Part shown: piece after piece, positions 300-18,252 of the stretch
Numbering within the stretch: the stretch's first letter is position 1
How the letters are laid out: each line of letters starts with the position of its first letter
Program-made: the position numbers and the translations under genes
Source: Schaalia meyeri
Lineage (GTDB): Bacteria > Actinomycetota > Actinomycetes > Actinomycetales > Actinomycetaceae
Direction of reading: 5' to 3'
Length of the DNA stretch: 32,000 nt
Assembly (NCBI RefSeq): GCF_900105015.1
Contig: NZ_FNLK01000010.1
Location: forward strand, 150,001-182,000
The notes under the pieces: model-generated
Database searches by the model: none
What the model was told of the DNA's origin: nothing
The model's input: the letters and a program-made list of their open reading frames with translations, nothing else

Positions 300-1751
300 A
301 TGCCGTCGAGTAAAGACATTCTTGAAGCCCAGCGTTTCAACCGCAACCGCCTGATCACCGCATTCACGTCGGGCACGCCGGACGGCCACGAGGTCGACAC
401 TCCCTCCCCCGTGCGCCCGCTGATTTTCGGCACAGTCGTCGCCGTCATCATGTGCGTCGTCGGATTGGGCATCCGTTTCTTCAACCCGAATCCGGACCTG
501 ACCGCCTCGAACTACGTGTTGGTTGACGTCAAGTCCACTGGCGCCCGGTATTTCTGGGCGAACGGCGTGCTTCACCCGATCACGAACGTGACGACGGCCA
601 GGCTCCTGGCCCAGGAGTCGGGGCTTGAGGTCATCTCGGCCAGCGCCTCGGCCCTCAAGGACATCCCGCGAGGTGCACAGATCGGCCTGCCCGGCGTCCC
701 CGACGACGTGCCCGCTTCGTCGCAGCTGGGCCACACGTGGCTGTCGTGCGACCTGGAAGATACGTACCACACGTGGATCGCCGAGTCCCTGCCAACCGAC
801 AACTTCCCCCTGAAAGCGGCCACGTCGGCGCTGGTGACCCCCGATCACGGGGCCACCAAGTACTTCGTGGATGGAACCACGAACAAAAAGTACCTGGTCG
901 ACGAAACCGATAGCCGACAGAGCGAGTGGGCGCTCGCCTTCCAAAACATCATGGGCTATCCGATCGAGGCAGAACCCGCGTGGGTGGACCTGTTCCCCTC
1001 CGGCACGCCGCTGAAGTCGTGGAGCTACTCGGACATCCCGAACGCCGGACAGCCCGCGAACGAGCTGCCGGGACCGCTAAAGAATGAAAACCTGACGATC
1101 GGCACGGTCATCCAGCAGACCAGCACGAACGGAGAGGTCCTGAACTCATACCTGGTCCTCACTTCGTCGCAGCTGGCGGTGTTTAACTCGACTGCCTCGC
1201 GCCTGTACAAGGACGCGCCGCCCACCCGGCCCTTCCCGACGGACATGTTCAAGGATGTGACCCCCGTTCACGCGGACTTTATCGGCGAAGACTGGCCGCT
1301 CTACGAGCACTTTGCCGACGCCCAGTGGGCCGACCCGAAGGCGGACGCCTCAAGCCGCACCGCCCTGTGCGCTCAGATGTCCACCACCGACCACGCGGTG
1401 CCTCAGCTCGGACTGTACGTGATGCCCAACCAGCGGGCCGTTCAGGCCGCATACGACGCCGAATCCGTGTCCTCCACCTCCGGCCCGACCACCACGCGCA
1501 CGGTGACGGTCGCGGGTGGCTCCGGCGCGCTCGTCGCAATCACCTCGGGAGGCGGAGAGGCTGCGGCCTACGCGTTCGTCTCTGACCAGGGGCACATGCA
1601 CTCCCTCGGGGCCTCTCCCAGTGCGTCGATCAACGCGCTCGGCTGGGCCCAGACGGACGCCTCCGCAATCCCCGAGGCCTGGGCGCTCCTTATCCCGCCC
1701 GGTACCGACCTGACGCCCCAGGCCGCGGCGACCTCAGTGGGGTTGTCGTGA
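300..1751 (+). CDS. eccB: Type VII secretion system protein EccB
   Basis: 483 aa with a single N-terminal TM segment (RPLIFGTVVAVIMCVVGLGIRFF). EccB-family landmarks follow: GVLHPITNVTTARLL, GAQIGLPGVPDDVP and TWLSCDLED. Size and the repeat-like extracytoplasmic body fit EccB. It sits between the eccD-like end and mycP. Confidence 0.85.
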   Translation: MPSSKDILEAQRFNRNRLITAFTSGTPDGHEVDTPSPVRPLIFGTVVAVIMCVVGLGIRFFNPNPDLTASNYVLVDVKSTGARYFWANGVLHPITNVTTARLLAQESGLEVISASASALKDIPRGAQIGLPGVPDDVPASSQLGHTWLSCDLEDTYHTWIAESLPTDNFPLKAATSALVTPDHGATKYFVDGTTNKKYLVDETDSRQSEWALAFQNIMGYPIEAEPAWVDLFPSGTPLKSWSYSDIPNAGQPANELPGPLKNENLTIGTVIQQTSTNGEVLNSYLVLTSSQLAVFNSTASRLYKDAPPTRPFPTDMFKDVTPVHADFIGEDWPLYEHFADAQWADPKADASSRTALCAQMSTTDHAVPQLGLYVMPNQRAVQAAYDAESVSSTSGPTTTRTVTVAGGSGALVAITSGGGEAAAYAFVSDQGHMHSLGASPSASINALGWAQTDASAIPEAWALLIPPGTDLTPQAAATSVGLS

Positions 1752-3178
1752 GCCGCGGGCGCGCACGGTCTCGGGTTTTGAGTCGAGGCCTGGTCGGTGC
1801 CGCGCTGACGACGGGCCTCGCGCTCGCGCCCCTGTTTGCGCCCCTTTCCGCTCCTGCGGACCGGGCCGGGGAGTCCTCCGCTTTCGGGCCCGCCGTTGCT
1901 CACGCGGATCCGACGCCTGCACCGAGTGTGCGGCCCACGCCCACGACCCCGCCATCGGAGGCGCCCACGCCGACTCCGAGCTCAAGCGCAGACCAGACCT
2001 GCCCGAAGGAAACGCCGACCTACATCAAGACTCAGCCCACGATCCTCGACCAGGTTGGGGTGCGGCGCGCGTGGGATGTCACGCGGGGCGCGGGCGTTAA
2101 GGTGGCCGTCGTAGATTCTGGTGTCGCCGCGGGTAACGCGCACTTCAATGCGGGCGGCCAGACCGTCGTGTTGCCGGGCACCGACCTCAGCGGCGAAAAC
2201 ACCGACGGGCGCGTTGACGTGGGCGAGCACGGCACCGCCATCGCCGGCGCGATCGCCGCCAGGCAACTGCCATCCTCCACGGGGTCGGGGCTGGTCGGCG
2301 TGGCCCCCGAGGCTCAGATCCTGCCCGTCCGCGTCGAGACCGGCCTCGAGCAGGGAAACAACCAAAAAAAGGGGGAGGAAACCTACCTGCAGCGCCTGGG
2401 CCGTGCGATTCGGTGGGCCGCCGACCACGGCGCCCAGATCATCGTCGTTGCTCAGTCAACGAAGGAGGACGACCCGGACCTGAAGGCGGCCATTCAGGCC
2501 GTGCGTGGCCGCGCGCTCGTCGTCGCCTCGACCGGCAATACGTACCAGGACCAGGAGAATAACGTCGTCGTCTACCCGGCCGGGTACGAGGGCGTGCTGG
2601 CGGTGACCGCCACGAACGCGGACGGTTCGGCGTCCGACCAGCAGGTGCACGGCGCACACGTCGATCTGGCCGTCCCCGCGGGGGTCATTCACACGACCTG
2701 GTTCGACCAGGCCGACTGCATGGTTGGGGGGCACTCTGGGAGCACGCCCCTGCCGTCATCCTCGTACGCGACCGCCTACGCCGGTGGATTCGCCGCCCTG
2801 GTTGCCGCCCAGTTCCCGGGCGAGGGCCCCGACATGTGGAAATACCGCCTGGAGGTGACGGCCCTGCGCGGGACCGCCGACCAGCGTACCGACGAACTGG
2901 GCTGGGGTATTGTTGCGCCCTACGACGCCCTCACCTTTGGCGACATTGGAACCAGGTATGGGCCGCCGCACCCGAACGCCGCCGAGCACCCCGCTCCGCT
3001 GCGCCCTGCCGAGGCATCGGCTAACCTGACAAACCGAGACAATAACCTGACGATCCGCGCATACATTGTGTCGGCGGTGGCGGTCCTCGGTTCCGCACTG
3101 CTGGGCGGTTTAGTGATTCTGTCGCACCTGCGCGGCAGGCCAAAGAATATCGATGAGTCGGAAGAGGACCTGTCATGA
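1748..3178 (+). CDS. mycP: Mycosin (MycP), a membrane-anchored S8 subtilisin-like protease of the T7SS
   Basis: The GTG start overlaps the eccB stop (GTGA at 1748-1751). It has an N-terminal signal-like segment and a Pro/Thr-rich linker. S8 triad contexts are VAVVDSGV (Asp), EHGTAIAGAIAA (His) and SSSYATAYAGGFAALVAA (Ser). The C-terminal TM anchor IRAYIVSAVAVLGSALLGGLVILSHL followed by basic residues is the mycosin hallmark. Confidence 0.85.
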   Translation: MSRGRARSRVLSRGLVGAALTTGLALAPLFAPLSAPADRAGESSAFGPAVAHADPTPAPSVRPTPTTPPSEAPTPTPSSSADQTCPKETPTYIKTQPTILDQVGVRRAWDVTRGAGVKVAVVDSGVAAGNAHFNAGGQTVVLPGTDLSGENTDGRVDVGEHGTAIAGAIAARQLPSSTGSGLVGVAPEAQILPVRVETGLEQGNNQKKGEETYLQRLGRAIRWAADHGAQIIVVAQSTKEDDPDLKAAIQAVRGRALVVASTGNTYQDQENNVVVYPAGYEGVLAVTATNADGSASDQQVHGAHVDLAVPAGVIHTTWFDQADCMVGGHSGSTPLPSSSYATAYAGGFAALVAAQFPGEGPDMWKYRLEVTALRGTADQRTDELGWGIVAPYDALTFGDIGTRYGPPHPNAAEHPAPLRPAEASANLTNRDNNLTIRAYIVSAVAVLGSALLGGLVILSHLRGRPKNIDESEEDLS

Positions 3179-4359
3179 CCAGGAATGTGAGGCGTCGGTG
3201 TCGGCGCGCGTGCATGGTTGCACTCGGCGTTGTTGTGCTGGTCGCCGGGACCACGCTGCTGCCCGCTGCTCCCGCGCGGGCTGTCGATCCGCCGCTGACG
3301 GGCAACGAGCAGGAGTACTACACGCACTACAGGATCCGGTCGCTGCACTCGCAGGGATACACCGGTAAGGGCACAGTCATCGCGATGATCGACGGGACCG
3401 TGAACCCGAATATTCCCGAGCTGGCGGGCGCGAATATCGTGGACAAGAGCCCGTGCCCCGTGAATTCCACGGCCGAACACGCTGATCACGGAACGCTGGT
3501 TGCACAGCTCCTGGTGGCGCCCGAGTTTGGCGTGGCCCCCGGGGCGACGCTCCACACCTACGCCGTTCAGTTGAACGGCGACAGAGAGGGACAGACCTGT
3601 GATTTGCCCGGGTGGACCGGCACAGAAGGAACCGATACCTCGCTGCTGATTGAGCAAGCGATCAATGACGGCGCGGACATTATCACGATCTCAAGCAGCT
3701 ACCCCGGATACTCCGAAGACCTGCGTTGGGCGATGGCGAGGGCCATCGACCAGGGAGTCATGGTGGTTGCTTCGATGGGAAATGACTCCACGGAGGACCC
3801 TGACGACACGTTACCGTCGTGGTCGGGTATATGCGGGGTCGGTGCAGTCTTGAAAAACGGTTCCCTCACCGACTATACGAACTGGGGTAACGGGATCTTT
3901 ACCGCCGCATTGGGCGGCGTTTACTACCGCAGTGGCACGGATAAGAAAATCTACTTCGGGGAAGGTACGTCCTTTTCGACGCCTATCGTCGCCGGGTTCC
4001 TGGCTATCGCGTGGCAGAGGTTTGACGACGCCAATGCCAACCGGATCCTGCAGGCCCTCGCCGAGTCAGGCAAGAAGAACTGGAACAAGTACACGGGCTA
4101 CGGTCCGATCGACCCATGGGCCTTCCTCAATACCGATCCGTCGAATCTGCCAAATGAGAATCCGTGCGAGTCAAAAACGTATGCCTCGGACCCCAGCTGG
4201 CAAGATGTCGAAGACTATATTGATGGCACCGTTAATCCGCTGCTGATCAGGAACGACGACTCTTACGTCTATCGGGGGATTAACGAGGATGCGGCCCTTA
4301 GCGACCAGCACGACTATCCCGTGCACCTGGGCACCAGCCCCAGGTATCACGCGCAGTGA
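3175..4359 (+). CDS. Second S8 family serine protease (mycosin paralogue) with a signal peptide but no C-terminal membrane anchor
   Basis: ATGA overlap with the mycP stop at 3175-3178. The signal peptide is MVALGVVVLVAGTTLLPAAPARA. Triad contexts are VIAMIDGTV (Asp), DHGTLVAQLL (His) and GTSFSTPIVAGFLAIA (Ser). The C-terminus ...HLGTSPRYHAQ is hydrophilic with no TM segment. Confidence 0.8.
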   Translation: MTRNVRRRCRRACMVALGVVVLVAGTTLLPAAPARAVDPPLTGNEQEYYTHYRIRSLHSQGYTGKGTVIAMIDGTVNPNIPELAGANIVDKSPCPVNSTAEHADHGTLVAQLLVAPEFGVAPGATLHTYAVQLNGDREGQTCDLPGWTGTEGTDTSLLIEQAINDGADIITISSSYPGYSEDLRWAMARAIDQGVMVVASMGNDSTEDPDDTLPSWSGICGVGAVLKNGSLTDYTNWGNGIFTAALGGVYYRSGTDKKIYFGEGTSFSTPIVAGFLAIAWQRFDDANANRILQALAESGKKNWNKYTGYGPIDPWAFLNTDPSNLPNENPCESKTYASDPSWQDVEDYIDGTVNPLLIRNDDSYVYRGINEDAALSDQHDYPVHLGTSPRYHAQ

Positions 4360-4495: not shown

Positions 4496-4882
4496 ATGGT
4501 AGATGTGATGGGGCAGACCCCCGAAGAAATTAGACAGACTCTGCGAGAACAAGTGGCGGCAGCCGAGAAGAGGGCCGCTGCCACACAGGAGCTCGTTGAG
4601 CTTTTGAAGTCAGCCAAGGCATCCGGCTTTGATTCCCGGCGCGAGATTGAGGCTGAGGTGGATCCTGAAGGACACCTCGTGAAACTGTCAATCGACGAAG
4701 ACGCCCTCGAAGGCAGCGCTCGGGACCTCGAGGAAGGGGTTATGGAGGCCTACGCGAACGCGGGGCGTAGCATGCGTGACTACATTCAGCGGGAGACGAT
4801 CGATCGCCTCGGCGAAGACGGCGGTTCGCTGAAGGATTACCTCGACAAGATGGACTCGAGCCTCGGCTCGCTGGGGCGCTGA
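4496..4882 (+). CDS. YbaB/EbfC-like small protein (EspL-like T7SS accessory or chaperone candidate)
   Basis: 128 aa with an N-terminal coiled helix (EEIRQTLREQVAAAEKRAAATQELVELL). The YbaB-type core is EAEVDPEGHLVKLSIDEDALEGSARDLEEGVMEAYANAGRSM. It is the first gene of the substrate-type operon. The alternative ATG at 4508 cannot be excluded. Confidence 0.6.
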   Translation: MVDVMGQTPEEIRQTLREQVAAAEKRAAATQELVELLKSAKASGFDSRREIEAEVDPEGHLVKLSIDEDALEGSARDLEEGVMEAYANAGRSMRDYIQRETIDRLGEDGGSLKDYLDKMDSSLGSLGR

Positions 4883-4888
4883 TCGCAC

Positions 4889-6241
4889 ATGAGTACAGGT
4901 TCCCCCGATCTCGGTGTCGATACAGGACTCATCCGTTCGCACGCGTCCAACGTCAGTAACTGCGCATCAACCCTCGACCAGAACGTGAGCGTCGCCAGCG
5001 GTACGCAAGGGCAGGTGGGCGGTAACGCGTTCGGCATTATCTGTTCATTCTTCGTTCCTCCGGTCAGTTCACAGATCCGGAATCTGCAGGGAATGATCTC
5101 CGACTGTGCTGGGGCCGAATCTCGTTTGGTGAGCTGCCTCCTGCAGTGGGCGGAGGAAATGGACGACCTCGAAGACCGCATCCGAGAGAAGCTGTCCAAA
5201 ATCGACAAGGAACAAGGCGGCGACAACAAGCCGACTGACTGTCGGCGTCCCCGTCCCAACGGTCCCACTACTGGCAACGGAAGCGGCAACGGTGACAGAA
5301 CCGGCGGTGGTTCCACCTCCGGTGGCGGCGGTGGTGGAGGCGGCGGTTCTACCTCCGGTGGCGGAGGCGGCGGTGGTTCCACTCACGGCGGCGGAGGCGG
5401 CGACGGTTCCACTCATGGTGGTGGGGGCGGCGGTTCCACCGAGGACTCATCTAAACCCAAGATGCCTATCCCCGAAACCCCGGGACGTCACAGCTCCCAA
5501 GCCGGCGGTGCGGCTGATGGCAGCACCACCGGTAAGGATGGACACGGCGGTCATGACGGCCATGACGGTACCGGCAGGGACGGTAAAGATGGTCACGACG
5601 GCCACAAAGGCGCCGCCGAGGATACCGCCAGAAAAGGTGGCTCCGGCGGAGCGGGTGATTTCGACAGCATCCTTGGCGGACATGACAAGGTGAACGTTGA
5701 CGACGATCAGCTGCGCGCATTCCTCGAGAAGCAGCGCAATGATGAAAACACCGATCTCGCCACGTTCTACGAGCGTCAGCGGGCCGATCAGAGTGAGGCG
5801 CTCGCCCGCTACGCTGAGGCTCACCCCGGTCAGGACATCTCCGAAGTCAAGTCTTTGATCGAGTCGAATCAGCAGCAGCAACAGGACGCGATGACGGATT
5901 TCCTCTCACGGCAACGAACGGAAGAGGAATCGCAGATCCGGCAGTATCTGCAGGAGCATCCGAAGGCCACCAGTCGCGACTTCGACACGTTCATGTCGCA
6001 GCAGCGCAATGAGCAAGAGGCGAGCTACCGTTCCTTTGTCGAGGAGCAGCAGAAGGCTCAGAATGCCCGAATCGAGGAGTTTACAAAGTCTCACCCCGAT
6101 TCGAGGCCGGATGATGTGCGTTCGCTCTTTGAGCGACAGGATAGTAACGGCGACAAGGACATCGAAAAGTTCCTCCAACGTCAACGTCAGGATGAGGAGC
6201 GCACCTTGCGTCGCTTCATGTTCGAAGGAGTGAAGAAGTGA
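4889..6241 (+). CDS. T7SS-associated protein: EspC-like (type VII secretion target) N-terminal domain, poly-Gly and Asp-Gly-His low-complexity segments, and a repeated Gln/Arg/Glu-rich C-terminal module
   Basis: 450 aa. Residues 1-110 (...GGNAFGIICSFFVPP...LVSCLLQWAEEMDDLEDRI) resemble the EspC/type VII secretion target fold family. Next come GGGSTSGGGGGGGGGSTSGGGGGGGSTHGGGGGDGSTHGGGGGGST and DGHGGHDGHDGTGRDGKDGHDGHKG. Seven copies of an F-x-x-(R/Q)-Q-R-x-(D/E)-(E/Q)...(F/Y) motif then follow. The gene is coupled to the next gene by a GTGA overlap. Confidence 0.7.
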   Translation: MSTGSPDLGVDTGLIRSHASNVSNCASTLDQNVSVASGTQGQVGGNAFGIICSFFVPPVSSQIRNLQGMISDCAGAESRLVSCLLQWAEEMDDLEDRIREKLSKIDKEQGGDNKPTDCRRPRPNGPTTGNGSGNGDRTGGGSTSGGGGGGGGGSTSGGGGGGGSTHGGGGGDGSTHGGGGGGSTEDSSKPKMPIPETPGRHSSQAGGAADGSTTGKDGHGGHDGHDGTGRDGKDGHDGHKGAAEDTARKGGSGGAGDFDSILGGHDKVNVDDDQLRAFLEKQRNDENTDLATFYERQRADQSEALARYAEAHPGQDISEVKSLIESNQQQQQDAMTDFLSRQRTEEESQIRQYLQEHPKATSRDFDTFMSQQRNEQEASYRSFVEEQQKAQNARIEEFTKSHPDSRPDDVRSLFERQDSNGDKDIEKFLQRQRQDEERTLRRFMFEGVKK

Positions 6242-7686
6242 GTCTTGAGGCTCCCACACATACCCGGAGTATCGATAACACAACTCCGACCGAAGGCCTA
6301 GGGGCCATCGACGACATCTACAATGCCGTCCAGGACATGAAGTCCGGCGACGTGACGACTCTCGTCAGCGCGGCCCAAAGCCTCGTGAGCGAGGCCGGTA
6401 ATATGGTGCTCGACCCCATTGGCGGTTTAGGCGGCATGGTCGTTGAGTGGATCCTGCAGCACGTCGAACCCCTCAAGGGATGGGTAAACCAGGTGACTGG
6501 CGATTCCGCTCAGGTCTATGGAATGAGCGCGAGCTGGGACTCGATCTCGAGTTCGCTCTCCTCCGTCGCCGACGAACTCGACGACGATTCACAAAGCGCC
6601 ATGTCGAACATGCGGGGTGAGGCGGTTCGCGCCTATCTTGAGCGCCAGTCGATCGTTGTGAGTGCGATTCGTGCGATTGCTGAAGCATCGGGCGCATTCA
6701 GTGAGGCTCTGAACAAAGTCGCCGACTCGGTTGACAACATTCACGATGCCATCGTCAGCGCGATTGCGGACATCGTTGTGACCTGCTTCCAGGTGGTTGC
6801 AGAAGTCCTTATGACGTTTGGTGCCGCGACGCCGGTTGCGGCAGCACAAGTCTCCTCGAAGGTCTCGAAGTGGGCGTCGCGCATCGGGCCGATCCTGGAG
6901 GTCCTCACCCACGCCCTCGAAGCCCTTCAGGCAATTTTCGCCGTGTTGACGTCTGCTGGCAGCGATCTGACTCGCGACGCGAAGAAGATTGGCGAGCAGT
7001 GCCAGGGACCCCGCAGGGGCGGCTGCTGTGGCGGCAATGAGCCTCCCACAGGTCGAAGAAGAAGGGGTGACGGTTCTTCGAATGGCGATGACCGGGATGA
7101 CGGCAGAGTCCGTAATGGTGAGACCGGCGGTGTGACCGGAACGGGTAACGTCGGCGGCGATAACAACGGCACCATCGACAATAGTCGACACGATGATCAC
7201 CACACCGAATACAACCCAACTATCAATATCAATCGCGGTGACAAGGGATCGTCGGGCAAAGACGGCGGCCATGACTCGGGCGATGATCGTCGCAACGGCT
7301 CTTCGGATGGGCGTTCCAGGTCCCGCGACAAGTCGCACGATGGCAGCGGTGACAAGGGGAAGGGCTCATCTAAGGGCTCCGACCATGGTGACAGGCATCG
7401 CGGTGGCAAAGACCACGGCGGCAAGGACCATGGTGGGCACCGTGGCGGTAACCACGGTAGCAACCACGGCGGTAACCATGGTGGTAACCACGGCGGGCAC
7501 CATGGCGGTAACCATGGTGGTAACCACGGTGGGCACCATGGTGGTAACCACGGTGGGCACCATGGTGGTAACCATGGTGGTAACCACGGTGGGCACCATG
7601 GTGGTAACCACGGTGGGCACCACGGCGGTAACCATGGTGGCGGCCATCATGGTGGCGGCCACCATCGCCACCGCCGCCATCACTGA
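6238..7686 (+). CDS. WXG100-like / actinobacterial T7SS-signal-domain protein with a His-Gly-Asn repeat C-terminus
   Basis: 482 aa. The N-terminal ~260 aa are helical, with the signature seen at the N-termini of actinobacterial T7SS substrates and polymorphic toxins: VLDPIGGLGGMVVEWILQHVEPLKGWVNQVTGDSAQVYGMSASWDSI...SNMRGEAVRAY (the WxG position reads MRG). The middle is a Gly/Asp/Arg/Ser-rich linker. In the last 101 residues I count 33 His, arranged as (N/H)HGG tetrapeptides and ending HHRHRRHH. Confidence 0.75.
   Translation: MSLEAPTHTRSIDNTTPTEGLGAIDDIYNAVQDMKSGDVTTLVSAAQSLVSEAGNMVLDPIGGLGGMVVEWILQHVEPLKGWVNQVTGDSAQVYGMSASWDSISSSLSSVADELDDDSQSAMSNMRGEAVRAYLERQSIVVSAIRAIAEASGAFSEALNKVADSVDNIHDAIVSAIADIVVTCFQVVAEVLMTFGAATPVAAAQVSSKVSKWASRIGPILEVLTHALEALQAIFAVLTSAGSDLTRDAKKIGEQCQGPRRGGCCGGNEPPTGRRRRGDGSSNGDDRDDGRVRNGETGGVTGTGNVGGDNNGTIDNSRHDDHHTEYNPTININRGDKGSSGKDGGHDSGDDRRNGSSDGRSRSRDKSHDGSGDKGKGSSKGSDHGDRHRGGKDHGGKDHGGHRGGNHGSNHGGNHGGNHGGHHGGNHGGNHGGHHGGNHGGHHGGNHGGNHGGHHGGNHGGHHGGNHGGGHHGGGHHRHRRHH
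7441..7680 (+). repeat. In-frame tandem repeat: 12-bp unit (ggt/ggc-aac/cac-cac/cat-ggt) with a 60-bp higher-order repeat
   Basis: The 60-nt blocks 7501-7560 and 7561-7620 are identical except for one base (c at 7506 versus t at 7566). Flanking blocks 7441-7500 and 7621-7680 are degenerate copies. The region encodes the NHGG/HHGG tail of the 6238-7686 protein. Confidence 0.9.
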
Positions 7687-7797
7687 TGCGCTGGCCGGGA
7701 AGCATGGGGTGACCGGGTAAACGAACCGTGAAGCAGTGCCGGTTTGCTGGTTTCCTGACAGCTCAGCGGCACGGCTGCCTCCGCTTGGCCAGATTAT

Positions 7798-7841
7798 CAA
7801 GAGGGTGCCCCGCACGAAATCTCGTGCGGGGCACCCTCTTG
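7798..7841. terminator. Bidirectional intrinsic terminator hairpin between convergent genes
   Basis: A perfect 20-bp stem, caagagggtgccccgcacga (7798-7817) paired with tcgtgcggggcaccctcttg (7822-7841), with loop aatc. It lies between the stop of the His-rich gene (7686) and the trkA stop (7853). Confidence 0.8.
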
Positions 7842-14747: not shown

Positions 14748-14836
14748 TGGTGGCGTGCAGGCGGCCCGCCCGCTAGGAGGAGGGTGCAGGCCAGGGTGGC
14801 GAGGGGTTTGGCCGTTCGTGCAGGGGGTGTGGTCAT
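14748..14836 (-). pseudogene. Truncated fourth copy of the island lipoprotein gene (signal-peptide stump only)
   Basis: Positions 14769-14838 are base-for-base identical to 15991-16060, the start of lipoprotein B including its ATGA junction. The stump reads MTTPPARTAKPLATLACTLLLAG. It then has a 1-nt indel relative to copy B, and all similarity ends by about 14748. Confidence 0.6.
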
Positions 14837-15450
14837 TTCCTTGGAGTGGTTGTCGGGTCGAACCAGTCGGGGACGCGGCCGGGCAGGTCGATGAGCCGCT
14901 TGGGGTCATCGGTGGACCCGTCACTGCGCAGGGGTTCCGTGTAGTAGGTGTAGGAGCTGTGGATATCTCGGGCGATAAGGGCGCTCACGGTGGCGCCGTA
15001 TCGTTCATTCACCCAGTAGAAGCTGACCCGCGTTTCCCCGTCGTTGGTGGTGTACTTCCTTTCCACAATTTTGAATCCGAGTGGTTCGAGGTGAGCGTTG
15101 ACGACGGAACGGAACCGGTCGACGTCGTGTTCCTCGAAGAAGTAATGGGCGGCAAACATGCTGTATAGGTACTGATTTCCGGCTGTGCTTCGGGAGATGC
15201 TGTCTTTGGCGCTGTATTTGCGGATGTTCTCGGTGGTGAGAATCTCGTTGCGTGCCGCCACAATAGCGGGCTCGATGTCGCGCTGGAAAGCCTCGATGGA
15301 CTCCATCTTGGACGCGTTGCGCAGGTTCTCAGCGTGGTGCGGGTTCATTCCTGATCCTCCAAAAAACGGTGTGCAGGCGGTGGCGCCCGCCAGGAGGAGG
15401 GTGCAGGCCAGGGCGGCGAGGAACTTGGTGGGGCGTACGTTTATTGTCAT
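14833..15450 (-). CDS. Lipoprotein, island paralogue A' (candidate immunity protein)
   Basis: 205 aa with signal peptide plus lipobox ...LACTLLLAGATAC|TPFFGG. It is about 85% identical by eye to the 16055-16663 product and shares the C-terminal block SDGSTDDPKRLIDLPGRVPDWFDP. Confidence 0.8.
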   Translation of the reverse strand: MTINVRPTKFLAALACTLLLAGATACTPFFGGSGMNPHHAENLRNASKMESIEAFQRDIEPAIVAARNEILTTENIRKYSAKDSISRSTAGNQYLYSMFAAHYFFEEHDVDRFRSVVNAHLEPLGFKIVERKYTTNDGETRVSFYWVNERYGATVSALIARDIHSSYTYYTEPLRSDGSTDDPKRLIDLPGRVPDWFDPTTTPRK

Positions 15451-15455
15451 ATGTC

Positions 15456-16058
15456 TTATTTGTGTCCGGCTGGTGGGGTTGAGGGGTCGAACCAGTCGGG
15501 GACGCGGCCGGGCAGGCCGATGAGCCGCTTGGGGTCATCGGTGGACCCATCGCTAGGAGCACGCAAGACGTAGTAGTGCACGGCGGTTTGTTCGCCTCCA
15601 ATTGTCGTGGAGGAGACGACTGCCTGGTACTGGTCATTGGTCCAGGAAAAGTCGACGAACTGTATGCCGTCTTCCGTTGTCCAGCGTTTCTCGGTCATCT
15701 TGAAGCCGAGGGGCTCGAGATGCGAGTTGTAGGTGGCTCGAATGGCGTCAGTGTCCATGTTCGCAAAGAAGTACAGACGCGAATGAAAGGAGTAGATTCT
15801 GGACCCCTCGCGCGTGTACGTGCCGATATGGTCTATGTTCTTGTATGCCATGAAGTTGTCAGCGGTCATGAGTTCGTTGCGTGCCGCGACGATGGCGGGC
15901 TCAATGTTGCGCTGGAAAGCCTCAACGGACTGAACCTTCTGATCGGGCGATTTCATAGTTCCTCCTAGGAACGGCGTGCAGGCGGTGGCGCCCGCTAGGA
16001 GGAGGGTGCAGGCCAGGGTGGCGAGGGGTTTGGCCGTTCGTGCAGGGGGTGTGGTCAT
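15456..16058 (-). CDS. Lipoprotein, island paralogue B (divergent core; candidate immunity protein)
   Basis: 200 aa with signal peptide plus lipobox MTTPPARTAKPLATLACTLLLAGATAC|TPFLGG. The segments EAFQRNIEPAIVAARNE, HLEPLGFK and the C-terminal SDGSTDDPKRLIGLPGRVPDWFDP are conserved, while the core has diverged. Its start overlaps the upstream stop (ATGA at 16055-16058). Confidence 0.8.
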   Translation of the reverse strand: MTTPPARTAKPLATLACTLLLAGATACTPFLGGTMKSPDQKVQSVEAFQRNIEPAIVAARNELMTADNFMAYKNIDHIGTYTREGSRIYSFHSRLYFFANMDTDAIRATYNSHLEPLGFKMTEKRWTTEDGIQFVDFSWTNDQYQAVVSSTTIGGEQTAVHYYVLRAPSDGSTDDPKRLIGLPGRVPDWFDPSTPPAGHK

Positions 16059-16663
16059 TTCGTTGGAGTGGTTGTCGGGTCGAACCAGTCGGGGACGCGG
16101 CCGGGCAGGTCGATGAGCCGCTTGGGGTCATCGGTGGACCCGTCGCTGCGCAGGGGCTCCGTGTCGTAGGTGTAGGAGCTGTGGAGGTCCGGGGAGAGGG
16201 AGATAAGGGCGCTCACGGTGGCGCCGTATCGTTCATTCACCCAGTAGAATTTGATCCGTGTTTTCCCGTCGTCGATGTGCTTCCTTTCCACAATTTCGAA
16301 TCCGAGTGGTTCGAGGTGAGCGTTGACGACGGAACGGAACCGGTCGACGTCGTGTTCCTCGAAGAAGTACTGGGCGGCAAACATGCTGTATAGGTACTGA
16401 TTTCCGGCTGTGCGTCGGGAGATGTGGTCTTTGTCGCCGTATTTGCGGATGTTCTCGCTGGTGAGAATCTCGTTGCGTGCCGCCACAATAGCGGGCTCGA
16501 TGTCGCGCTGGAAAGCCTCGACGGACTCCATCTTGGACGCGTTGCGCAGGTCCTCAGCGTGGTGCGGGTTCATTCCTGATCCTCCAAAAAACGGTGTGCA
16601 GGCGGTGAGTGGCAGCGATACCAAGATAACGCTGATGATTGTGGCGAACCGATGTATTTTCAT
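16055..16663 (-). CDS. Lipoprotein, island paralogue A (candidate immunity protein), translationally coupled to the hydrolase gene
   Basis: I place the start at ATG 16663-16661 (MKIHRFATIISVILVSLPLTAC|TPFFGG, a classic L-T-A-C lipobox). This forms an ATGA overlap with the hydrolase stop at 16662-16660. The track's longer ORF (to 16885) would overlap the hydrolase and is Arg/Gly-rich. Confidence 0.8.
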   Translation of the reverse strand: MKIHRFATIISVILVSLPLTACTPFFGGSGMNPHHAEDLRNASKMESVEAFQRDIEPAIVAARNEILTSENIRKYGDKDHISRRTAGNQYLYSMFAAQYFFEEHDVDRFRSVVNAHLEPLGFEIVERKHIDDGKTRIKFYWVNERYGATVSALISLSPDLHSSYTYDTEPLRSDGSTDDPKRLIDLPGRVPDWFDPTTTPTK

Positions 16664-18252
16664 TTCTTTTCCCCGGCGATGACCCGTGAAATGTCGTCCA
16701 GCGCCTTCGTCTTTTCCTTGAAGTAGGAACTGTGTTCTCCCCAGCCGGTGGGGTGCCACGGGGTGTCGCCGACATCCCCCGATAGGTGCCTGTATCCGGG
16801 CATCGTGTCGGGGTTCTTTCCGAAGGTGGCATCCGGGCCGACCCCCTGGACCATGTCGTGCCGGTAGGGCGCCGCGCTGACCCACGCGTGCCCCTTTGGG
16901 ACGTGCAGCTCGCCGACGTCCTGAACGCCGGAGCCAGGAGAACCGAACTGAACCAGGTCGTCGATGACGCCATCGCCCACTTTCGTGGCGGCGATGCCCG
17001 CCGTCGTGGAACCGTAGGAGTGAGCCGCAACGGTGACGTGGGCGTCCCCCGCGCCGTGCTCGCGCGAGGCGTCCAGCCCGTTCAGGAAACCAGCCAGGCG
17101 TTGAGCGCCAGCCTGAGCCTTGTCCGTGGACATAACGTCAACATCCTGTGGTGCGTCGTAATTGAGATATTCCACGATCGCGACGGATCCATCGGTGTAC
17201 TCTTTAACGTTCTTACGCATGGTGGAGGCCTTGTCGTCGTAGTCGCCAAGTGAATCTGCCACGTTCGTGGTCATGCCCGGGACGATGACGCCCACGTGGT
17301 CGGCCGTGTCCGGGTTATTCTGAGAGACAGCCGCGAGGACGTTGGGCCCCGACGTGTCCATGCCGAGGAGGAAGCGGGGGGTACCATCTTCCTCTTCTTT
17401 TTTGAGAGTGTGTCCAATAGCGCGGAGCGCCTGAAGTTGCCGGTGAAGCCGTTTCAACTCTCCCAGCTGTTCGACCGTTGGATCGTCCCCGAGCTCTCTC
17501 TCGTAGTCTGCGAGTTGCTGCTCCGCTTCCGCGATCTTCTGCGGGAGCGCGATACGGTTCGCTTTGTCGCGGGAGGTAAAGTCAACGCCGTCAAGGTTTC
17601 CGATCTGCTCGGGGTAATTCTCGATCATCCACTGCTTGTCCTTGTCGGACAGGGAACTCCACCAGGACGCCACCTCCTGCGCTGAAGCGCCAGCGGGAGG
17701 CAGGGAGGGGCGAGCGCTGCCGGACACGGAATAGTGCACTCCGTTGTCGAATGTTCCCCTGTCCAAAGCACTGATCATGCCTGCGAGTTTCTCTTCGAGG
17801 GCGCGAGCGTCCGTGAGGACAGTTGCGATGCGTTCGCGGATGAAAGTGAGACGCTTCAGCGGAGCCAGGGGGTCCATAGCGACATCAGCAAGCTCGCGAA
17901 GAACAGACTCGAACACAGAGACAACCCCGCTCGTGTCGATGTGAACACTCAGCGAAACAGCCAACTGTGAGATGTCCTCAATGTTCGCGCGGATCTCGTT
18001 GATCCCCTGGACTCCGGCGGAGGCGACCTCGGCCGCGCTGATCAGGTAGTTGACCTGCTCCTCAATCTCGCTGACCCGCTTGCGCAGCGCGTTCCGCGCG
18101 GCGTCCGCGGTCTGGCCCTGGCCGCTGAGCCTGCTCAGCTCGGTCGAGAGGTCCTCGCCCGTCTCCTGCAGCTTTCGCTGCTTCCTCTCGCATTCCAAGG
18201 CGTACTCCTGGAGCGGAGCAGAATCCCATTGCTTGATGTCCGCCCAATTCAC
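16660..18252 (-). CDS. Two-domain protein with no signal peptide: helical LXG/WXG100-like N-terminus plus DUF1023-type alpha/beta hydrolase C-terminus (candidate T7SS effector)
   Basis: 530 aa with a GTG start. The N-terminus has no hydrophobic signal. Residues ~1-170 look like a helical hairpin with the turn ...LSRLSGQGQTADAARNAL... The mid-region is EVASWWSSLSDKDKQWMIENYPEQIGNLDGVDFTSRDKANRIAL. The hydrolase core has HVGVIVPGM, YLNYDAP, the nucleophile elbow VAAHSYGST (A-H-S-Y-G), QFGSPG and a C-terminal His context WGEHSSYF. Confidence 0.85.
   Translation of the reverse strand: MNWADIKQWDSAPLQEYALECERKQRKLQETGEDLSTELSRLSGQGQTADAARNALRKRVSEIEEQVNYLISAAEVASAGVQGINEIRANIEDISQLAVSLSVHIDTSGVVSVFESVLRELADVAMDPLAPLKRLTFIRERIATVLTDARALEEKLAGMISALDRGTFDNGVHYSVSGSARPSLPPAGASAQEVASWWSSLSDKDKQWMIENYPEQIGNLDGVDFTSRDKANRIALPQKIAEAEQQLADYERELGDDPTVEQLGELKRLHRQLQALRAIGHTLKKEEEDGTPRFLLGMDTSGPNVLAAVSQNNPDTADHVGVIVPGMTTNVADSLGDYDDKASTMRKNVKEYTDGSVAIVEYLNYDAPQDVDVMSTDKAQAGAQRLAGFLNGLDASREHGAGDAHVTVAAHSYGSTTAGIAATKVGDGVIDDLVQFGSPGSGVQDVGELHVPKGHAWVSAAPYRHDMVQGVGPDATFGKNPDTMPGYRHLSGDVGDTPWHPTGWGEHSSYFKEKTKALDDISRVIAGEKK

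Follow-up and report, generated by a model that had tools for sequence, protein, structure and literature searches.

A type VII substrate-type protein of Schaalia meyeri with a variable-number histidine/glycine tail that may act as a switchable polycation

Introduction

The Esx (type VII secretion) cluster of Schaalia odontolytica F0309, OBNOAD_00322-00338, is induced by the Saccharibacteria epibiont TM7-008 via the threat-sensing Esr pathway and limits the growth of this epibiont (PMC13622651, a September 2026 preprint). The effectors and functions of type VII secretion systems (T7SS) in Actinomycetaceae were unknown before that work, which showed that the Schaalia Esx system limits Saccharibacteria through a disordered effector region. 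The cluster secretes EsxA, EsxB, and the AesA-AesB pair, and what is essential in AesB is a disordered region, charged and rich in Gly, that bears a conserved short motif (PMC13622651). The same study named OBNOAD_00337 and 00338 as further structure-predicted substrates and reported Esx induction in S. meyeri W712 as well. Here, we analyze the last two genes of the Esx locus of S. meyeri, a second, uncharacterized pair of predicted substrates of the same locus. They lie in a stretch of 32,000 nucleotides (nt) of contig NZ_FNLK01000010.1 (positions 150,001 to 182,000), which we call the window and within which all coordinates are given unless another sequence is named. The final gene, hereafter the target, encodes a helical N-terminal domain (N-domain) followed by a tail dominated by His and Gly; the gene before it encodes its partner.

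How does this pair compare with AesA-AesB? It belongs to the same Esx cluster type and genus, and it is likewise a two-gene pair. Both combine a helical targeting domain at the N-terminus with a long C-terminus, Gly-rich and charged, that is disordered in AesB and predicted to be so here; short conserved motifs are present, and no enzyme domain can be recognized. The cluster is Saccharibacteria-induced, also in S. meyeri. However, AesA and AesB are OBNOAD_00323 and 00324, whereas the pair studied here corresponds by position to 00337/00338; AesB is not described as His-rich; and AesA and AesB were detected as secreted, whereas 00337/00338 were not. The GYNVP/GYVNP motif of AesB is absent from the window and from all ten loci that we compared, in all six frames. 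The idea that the pair is AesA/AesB itself is ruled out by the absence of this motif, the different gene numbers, and the different architecture. In the preprint, the numbering of the esxA/B locus is inconsistent by one, and the list of AesB homologues, obtained by BLASTp, does not include 00338 (PMC13622651).

Esx-associated toxins with a helical N-domain have also been described recently in Actinomycetota (PMC13444075). Disordered-cargo Schaalia T7SS substrates and helical-N-domain Esx toxins are therefore already known, but a His/Gly variable-number polycationic tail is undescribed in the literature that we searched, and no histidine-rich T7SS substrate is described in the full texts covered. 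We found that the tail is a rapidly varying repeat whose potential charge, rather than its histidine content, is kept in three of four clades of orthologues, and that a polycation switchable by pH or metal describes it better than a scavenger dedicated to metal.

Results

Anatomy of the target protein

The pair consists of the following features, all on the plus strand.

6238-7686, plus strand: target open reading frame of 482 amino acids, with a GTG start and GAAGGAG 7 nt upstream
6238-7035, plus strand: target N-domain (residues 1-266), a predicted elongated all-helical T7SS targeting domain (WXG100_2, match to PF25547)
7000-7032, plus strand: CxxPxxGGCCG motif (C255, C263, C264) at the domain/tail junction, invariant in both of our alignments, A1 and A2
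7033-7380, plus strand: Gly/Asp/Arg/Ser-rich linker with the motifs VGGDNNGTI (7150-7176) and EYNPTI (7207-7224)
7381-7683, plus strand: His/Gly/Asn tail (residues 382-482), delimited by composition and repeats
4889-6241, plus strand: partner, with an EspC-like helical N-terminus (weak match to PF10824, 0.0023), a Gly-rich acidic low-complexity center with DGH repeats, and a charged C-terminal domain (C-domain) of 193 amino acids

It is well supported that the target is the terminal Esx substrate-type protein of S. meyeri, paired with a translationally coupled partner, and that its cargo is a non-enzymatic tail. The target start overlaps the partner stop by 4 nt, and more than 100 homologues with the same N-domain confirm the reading frame. 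A sequence-only reading of this DNA had proposed a WXG100-like N-terminal domain of the type that carries toxins in other Actinobacteria, and both halves of that proposal hold. The Pfam model WXG100_2 (PF25547) matches residues 88-204 with 29.8 bits, above its gathering cut-off of 27; the WXG100 (Pfam) and TIGR03930 (NCBIfam) models match weakly. A profile search with the first 265 residues, counted in cluster representatives, defined an N-domain family of 1552 members, 894 of them at an expect value (E) <=1e-10. When 100 of the best 150 representatives were scanned with Pfam, the C-terminal domains found were TNT (9 members), GH-E nuclease (5), glutamine deamidase (Gln_amidase, 5), Ntox15 (4), ADP-ribosyltransferase (ADPrib_exo_Tox, 4), ART (3), Endonuclease_NS_2 (3), and CdiA_C (2). 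In the target itself, no Pfam or NCBIfam domain was found beyond residue 253, and so no toxin domain.

The target resembles the T7SS polymorphic toxins of Actinomycetota (Eat/Tap, PMC13444075; WXG100_2) and the LXG toxins of Bacillota in several respects. Its N-domain is homologous by profile to those fused to TNT, GH-E, Ntox15, ART, deamidase, and nuclease domains, it has an LXG-like turn (LTG in the family, VTG in the target), and a helical partner is co-encoded. Unlike them, the target lacks a toxin domain and an immunity gene, it occupies a fixed position in the core locus rather than a mobile toxin-immunity cassette, and its partner is a multi-domain protein of 450 amino acids rather than a small Lap/Tap protein.

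An AlphaFold2 model of the N-domain built from a 114-sequence alignment is all-helical, with a predicted local distance difference test score (pLDDT) of 82.7 and a predicted template modeling score (pTM) of 0.73; an earlier model from an 11-sequence alignment reached a pLDDT of 55.9 and was set aside. Two helices in the model are very long (residues 128-192 and 198-253), and the family turn, VTG(D) at residues 86-89 of the target, falls in a helix break. Y133 is nearly invariant, and the residue four positions on is Q, not the D/E of the YxxxD/E signal. Foldseek returned no significant match to this model in the PDB. The best E was 0.11, for BAR domains, and PPE15, PPE41, and PPE4 (target-normalized TM 0.60-0.63) were among the matches together with EspB, all at E of about 1, a modeled picture that is compatible with a T7SS substrate bundle without being diagnostic. 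The N-domain profile likewise found only coiled-coil noise among PDB sequences (E >=0.037), and no solved structure related in sequence. Hydrophobic residues 170-205 had been considered as part of a membrane-inserting toxin; this reading was rejected, as the stretch belongs to the two long helices conserved across the toxin-carrier family.

At the domain/tail junction, residues 255-265 have the sequence CQGPRRGGCCG, with the CCGG noted in the sequence-only reading at residues 263-266. This three-Cys CxxPxxGGCCG motif is invariant in all orthologues, down to those 38% identical, and it is the sequence beyond it that changes. It is a possible post-export disulfide, metal or lipid attachment site, or processing site. 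The low-complexity region that follows bears out the description of a Gly/Asp/Arg/Ser linker and a cargo without an enzyme domain: residues 261-400 contain 37 Gly, 22 Asp, 16 Arg, and 15 Ser. The linker has fixed points across the three closer groups of orthologues (clades A-C, defined below), in which the short motifs VGGDNNGTI and (E/H)xNPxI are kept and the columns V305, G307, D308, N309, G311, T312, I313, and N326 are invariant or nearly so.

The tail and its variation among orthologues

The last 101 residues consist of 33 His, 44 Gly, 11 Asn, 6 Arg, 4 Asp, 2 Lys, and 1 Ser, a composition far beyond chance. The His count is exactly that of the sequence-only reading. Only 9 of the 42 His in the protein lie elsewhere, 4 in the 265-residue N-domain and 5 in the linker. 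The core of the tail is an array of 16 in-register 12-nt units at 7447-7638 that encode strict (N/H)HGG tetrapeptides; the figure of about 20 given by the sequence-only reading is reached only when the variants KDHGG, HRGG, and NHGS are included, while the terminus HHRHRRHH (nt 7660-7683) is as it described. Tandem Repeats Finder resolves the array into 16.2 copies of a 12-nt period and 3.6 copies of a 60-nt period, at 91% matches and a score of 351. The invariant His of the unit is present in all 16 units, encoded by CAC in 8 and CAT in 8, and this equal usage is a mild argument that the His has been maintained rather than merely copied. The last 60 residues have a potential charge (K+R+H-D-E) of +25, from 22 His and 3 Arg, or +3 if His is counted as neutral. 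The 12-nt periodicity also yields spurious open reading frames, a Thr/Val/Met-rich one in the +2 frame (7193-7720) and two on the minus strand (7366-7815 and 7370-7705), which are not genes.

Searched on its own against a set of 5.8 billion proteins, the tail gave 1164 word-sharing candidates and no scored match, presumably because of composition-bias correction. Among PDB sequences, the prion protein was the sole one to resemble it, at a non-significant E of about 1.

We compared the tails of orthologues joined by their N-domain and the invariant GGCCG, 102 close homologues and 18 more from a profile search. They fall into four clades, listed here with N-domain identity to the window, tail type, and His count, and then with the mean values for the last 60 residues.

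Clade A: 66-70% identical; GGHKGGNDKGG- or GGNHGGNQSG-type repeats; 12-29 His. Last 60 residues (n = 30): K+R+H-D-E 18.0, His 11.5
Clade B (includes Schaalia sp.): 60-63% identical; non-repetitive His/Arg/Asp/Glu (HHHH...HHRRRSHGRHR); 16-26 His. Last 60 residues (n = 56): K+R+H-D-E 19.8, His 11.7
Clade C: 46-48% identical; KTPKKPKTPETP-type Lys/Pro repeats; mostly 1-6 His, with two variants reaching up to 13. Last 60 residues (n = 16): K+R+H-D-E 17.0, His 0.7
Clade D: 38% identical; mixed, net-neutral, ending in GSGGWSGSSGSF; 2-3 His. Last 60 residues (n = 13): K+R+H-D-E -0.5, His 1.8

The His-rich tail is confined to orthologues at least 60% identical. In the last 60 residues, individual clade C proteins have 0-4 His and those of clade D 1-2. 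Asp and Glu are almost absent from this segment in clades A-C. Since potential charge is near-constant in these three clades while His content varies, His and Lys/Arg look interchangeable across lineages. This interchange points to charge over histidine-specific chemistry, and the S. meyeri tail would be the most switch-like version of it. Every full-length orthologue retains a tail of more than 100 amino acids, and the basic terminus is conserved.

Variation is just as evident at close range. Four genomes or contigs of S. meyeri agree at 99.6-100% identity in the N-domain, and a single G/D difference separates their linkers. The array varies in how many units it has and in whether N or H opens them, so that the proteins measure 454-482 amino acids and have 28-38 His in the tail. 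The array is always in frame and always ends in GGGHHRHRRHH. Near-identical clade A proteins likewise span 390-431 amino acids. Together, the variation within S. meyeri and the differences among clades indicate that the tail is a variable-number repeat of lineage-specific composition.

The partner protein

The partner has a helical N-terminus, whose EspC-like match (PF10824) falls below the Pfam threshold, followed by a Gly-rich region, an acidic low-complexity stretch, and the charged C-domain. It contains GKDGHGGHDGHDGTGRDGKDGHDGHKG, which agrees with the DGH repeats that the sequence-only reading saw in the preceding gene product. The C-domain (5663-6241, the last 193 residues) has no relative in Pfam or the PDB, only weak sub-threshold matches to hemophore models. 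It is made of repeated F/YxxxQRxxE-like units.

The acidic stretch differs among the clades.

Clade A (contig L001): (DGSGH)n and (DGHDGKDGS)n, 26 His
Window: DGH repeats, 8 His
Clade B: no His-bearing repeats, 0 His
Clade C: no His-bearing repeats, 0 His

In clade A, the (DGSGH)n and (DGHDGKDGS)n arrays of the partner are very long (L001, 8301-10004; L003, 8427-10004), and His enrichment there affects both members of the pair. The co-variation of His between partner and target is partial. It is the best comparative hint of a histidine-specific and metal-related chemistry.

The Esx locus and its neighbors

The window opens inside the Esx locus, of which the target is the last gene. On CP066065.1, a 2.03-Mb S. 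meyeri chromosome that encodes the target, the order is eccC (on the opposite strand), an EccD-like gene, an RDD/FHA gene, esxB/esxA, eccD, eccB, two S8 subtilase genes, a YbaB-like gene, partner, target, and then convergent trkA and trkH. The remaining features of the locus within the window are as follows.

300-1751, plus strand: eccB, T7SS membrane component (Pfam T7SS_ESX1_EccB, 3.6e-49), identical to Schaalia meyeri EccB QQC43884.1
1748-3178, plus strand: mycosin-like S8 subtilase with a C-terminal membrane anchor (Peptidase_S8, 2.1e-30; TIGR03921 T7SS_mycosin, 2.4e-65, below cut-off)
3175-4359, plus strand: second S8 subtilase paralogue with a signal-peptide-like N-terminus (Peptidase_S8, 7.9e-23)
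4496-4882, plus strand: YbaB/EbfC-like small protein in an EspL-like position (PF02575, 9.2e-07, 29.4 bits against a cut-off of 25.5)
7800-7839, no strand assigned: perfect 17-bp inverted repeat with a 6-nt loop, between the convergent target gene and trkA

Clades A, B, and C share one gene order with S. meyeri W712: esxBA, eccD, eccB, two or three S8 genes, the ybaB-like gene, partner, target, and convergent trkA. The related loci lie on uncultured Actinomyces, Pauljensenia, and Schaalia contigs, with target orthologues at 70%, 63%, and 46% N-domain identity, and the YbaB-like gene has the same position in all of them. Because this order is constant across related contigs, the target is a fixed orthologous member of the core locus and not a mobile cassette. 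Between eccB and the ybaB-like gene (1748-4359 in the window), S. meyeri has two S8 genes, and the related Actinomyces, Pauljensenia, and Schaalia loci (L001, L004, L006) have three; the mycosin-like C-terminal membrane anchor is found only in the first S8 subtilase.

Only 166 nt separate the target stop from convergent trkA, and they hold the inverted repeat, which from its sequence is likely a terminator. A consensus terminator scan missed it because there is no T-run on the plus strand, and promoter and terminator consensus scans did no better than on shuffled sequence. There is no immunity gene downstream of the target and no room for one, and the arrangement is the same in all related loci.

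The neighbors include trkA/trkH, a histidine phosphatase, a PfkB (sugar) kinase, an MFS transporter, a DUF4853/Abhydrolase_8 cluster, menaquinone (men) genes, and an HtrA-like protease. Among these neighbors in the window there is neither a metal importer nor a receptor gene. Consensus boxes for Zur, IdeR/DtxR, Fur, CsoR/RicR, and MntR, of the kind for which the sequence-only reading had recommended an upstream search, are absent from the 21 kb around the locus, a weak test given that the operators of Actinomycetaceae are not known.

Two further observations concern the surroundings. About 7 kb from the Esx locus, 14833-18252 on the minus strand includes a protein of 530 amino acids (16660-18252) with a helical N-terminal region of about 300 amino acids and an Abhydrolase_8 domain (9e-30). 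It is followed on the same strand by three DUF4853 paralogues, each with a lipoprotein-like signal (LLAGATAC or LTAC). This cluster has the look of an alpha/beta-hydrolase toxin of a T7SS, accompanied by three immunity genes for lipoproteins. Outside the window, upstream of esxBA on CP066065.1, a non-coding region of about 1.2 kb (L007, 645-1893) holds two arrays, in which GGATAGG(A/T)(A/T)ACG units are inverted relative to CCTATCCA units; these might serve to bind a regulator or be left over from a mobile element.

Discussion

What would such a tail do outside the cell? We tentatively favor the explanation that it acts as a conditional polycation after export. The likeliest mate of the target N-domain (residues 1-265) is the partner's EspC-like N-terminus, and this heterodimer would leave the cell through the Esx machine. 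The cargo so exported would be the tail, which from its composition is almost certainly disordered and which comprises CxxPxxGGCCG, the linker with its two short motifs, and the variable-number (N/H)HGG array ending in HHRHRRHH. Because nearly all of its potential charge is histidine, the S. meyeri tail should be nearly neutral at pH 7 (+3) and become a strong polycation, of up to about +25, below a pH of about 6 or with divalent metal on its His. Protonated in acidified plaque or loaded with metal, it could then stick to anionic polymers or membranes of the envelope of an attached epibiont or a competitor, or to the producer's own wall. Such an action would be akin to that of histatins or cationic disordered antimicrobial peptides. 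There are precedents for parts of this chemistry: cationic disordered Gly/Ser/His/Arg peptides derived from hornerin kill microbes independently of sequence (PMC6399351), and in a fungal lytic polysaccharide monooxygenase a His-bearing disordered tail binds copper and is antifungal (10.1101/2025.11.04.686606).

Several points weigh against this explanation. First, the disorder and the pH switching are both read from composition. Second, the tail of clade D is net-neutral and not cationic, so the polycation property is not universal among the orthologues. Third, the acidic region of the clade A partner also gains many His (26 in L001), which a pure charge model does not explain. Fourth, the most conserved portion of the pair is the partner C-domain, which is 76-81% identical across clades whose target N-domains share only 46-70%; no part of the target is conserved to that extent, so the function that is kept in the pair may reside in this domain. 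Finally, comparison of the secretomes of wild type and an eccC mutant of S. odontolytica detected EsxA, EsxB, AesA, and AesB only, and 00337/00338 were not found (PMC13622651). The partner and target are most likely 00337 and 00338, as the last two genes before trkA, an assignment made from gene position only.

Could the tail instead be a metal module? In this proposal, which goes back to the sequence-only reading, it would be a zincophore, a nickel or copper scavenger, or a metal sink, which Esx exports so that Zn, Ni, Cu, or Co is captured or sequestered. The prion protein, the only look-alike in the PDB and a non-significant one, has HGG as the core of its Cu(II)-binding octarepeat. With 33 His in 101 residues, binding of metal in vitro is chemically almost certain, although that does not establish a scavenging function. 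His is retained through three repeat architectures, in orthologues down to 60% identity, and the Asp and His of the clade A partner's acidic region (DGSGH, DGHDG) are a combination typical of metal ligands, not of charge substitution; soft metals could be bound by the conserved CxxPxxGGCCG. Secretion systems with links to metal also exist, both T7SS (ESX-3 and EsxG-EsxH; PMC3191040, PMC3796483, PMC4010830) and the type VI secretion system (T6SS; PMC4489752). The former already provide an example of a T7SS that is linked to metal.

Nevertheless, we regard a metal module as unlikely. Syntenic orthologues have lost the His, which is replaced by Lys/Pro at 46-48% identity and by a neutral non-His sequence at 38%, and strains differ by drift in the number of array copies. 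The homologue survey thus largely revealed a low-complexity expansion that changes rapidly, the very outcome that the sequence-only reading had said would tell against it. The genomic context is not linked to metal, neither by regulator boxes (within the limits of that scan) nor by an importer or receptor gene, and the only published regulation, and the sole known inducer, of the cluster is epibiont attack rather than metal limitation (PMC13622651). Metal scavenging is therefore a possible function of the tail but not the one we favor.

Comparison with known metal-binding proteins leads to the same balance. The tail shares extreme His density in a Gly-rich disordered context with Hpn and Hpn-like proteins, histatin 5, histidine-rich glycoprotein, the prion octarepeat, and the hornerin-derived CIDAMPs (antimicrobial peptides that are cationic and intrinsically disordered, PMC6399351), and its HGG unit resembles the octarepeat core. 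Like them, it is expected to have a pH-dependent cationic charge and to bind divalent metals; with histatins it has an oral niche in common. However, none of these proteins is homologous in sequence to the tail or is a T7SS substrate, and the His ligands are not conserved among target orthologues. The metal-binding substrates YezP of a T6SS (PMC4489752) and EsxG-EsxH of ESX-3 (PMC3191040, PMC3796483) are, as is predicted for the target, proteins able to bind metal that leave by specialized secretion. They are metal-regulated and tied to uptake, whereas for the target we found no metalloregulator box, importer, or conservation of His ligands.

It is also improbable, to a similar degree, that the pair is a structural or accessory part of the apparatus, like EspA, EspC, and EspB of ESX-1. 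In that case an assembly outside the cell or across the wall would be built from the helical domains and held to anionic wall polymers by the basic tail, with possible processing by the S8 proteases. The pair stands at the fixed end of the core locus in every Actinomycetaceae locus examined, directly downstream of two or three mycosin-like S8 genes and with no immunity gene, as would suit a component of the machine. A weakly EspC-like partner N-terminus and the presence of EspB among the fold matches point the same way, and failure to find 00337/00338 in the S. odontolytica supernatant fits cell association. However, secretion of EsxA/EsxB in S. odontolytica is independent of the other substrate pair (PMC13622651), the N-domain family is otherwise a carrier of toxins, and the EspC match is below threshold. 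Moreover, tails as different in composition as those of the clades, the neutral clade D among them, do not suit a structural contact that is fixed. The mycobacterial PE/PPE proteins (PE_PGRS, PPE-MPTR) and EspA/EspC/EspB are, as we predict for the pair, heterodimeric helical T7SS substrates with Gly-rich or disordered C-terminal extensions, and they recur in the fold matches of the target (PPE, EspB) and the weak match of the partner (EspC). They differ in that the target has no significant Pfam match to PE, PPE, or EspA/E, its tail is His/Gly/Asn rather than Gly/Ala or Asn/Gly, and its host is a monoderm member of the Actinomycetaceae.

Least probable of all is that the His array is a slippage-prone in-frame microsatellite in a dispensable disordered spacer, drifting in composition from lineage to lineage without specific function: the 12-nt/60-nt tandem repeat with 91% unit identity, the copy number differences among S. 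meyeri strains and near-identical clade A proteins (390-431 amino acids), and the radically different tail compositions of the clades would all suit drift, but all full-length orthologues retain a tail of more than 100 residues, its basic terminus is conserved, its last 60 positions exclude acidic residues, clades A-C have a near-constant potential charge made up of different residues, the unit His is invariant (16/16, CAC/CAT 8/8), and the disordered tail of the sister protein AesB is functionally required (PMC13622651).

Returning to the conditional polycation, a more specific version can be formulated, though we consider it speculative and rather unlikely in its entirety. The Esx system of oral Schaalia would export a histatin analogue, a disordered (N/H)HGG polycation, which acidified plaque or loading with Zn/Cu would activate for use against surface-attached Saccharibacteria or neighbors. 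Inside the producer, it would be held harmless by the acidic Gly/Asp(/His) region of the partner, a shield that would account for the missing immunity gene, and the number of repeats would provide a rapidly tunable dose of charge.

Why does this pair merit attention? The family offers four natural tail types (His/Gly repeats, His/Arg, Lys/Pro, and neutral), a ready-made test of the contributions of charge, histidine chemistry, and short motifs. If the tail is indeed a pH- or metal-gated polycation, it would represent a new principle for T7SS effectors, one that links plaque pH or metal availability to interbacterial defense in the mouth.

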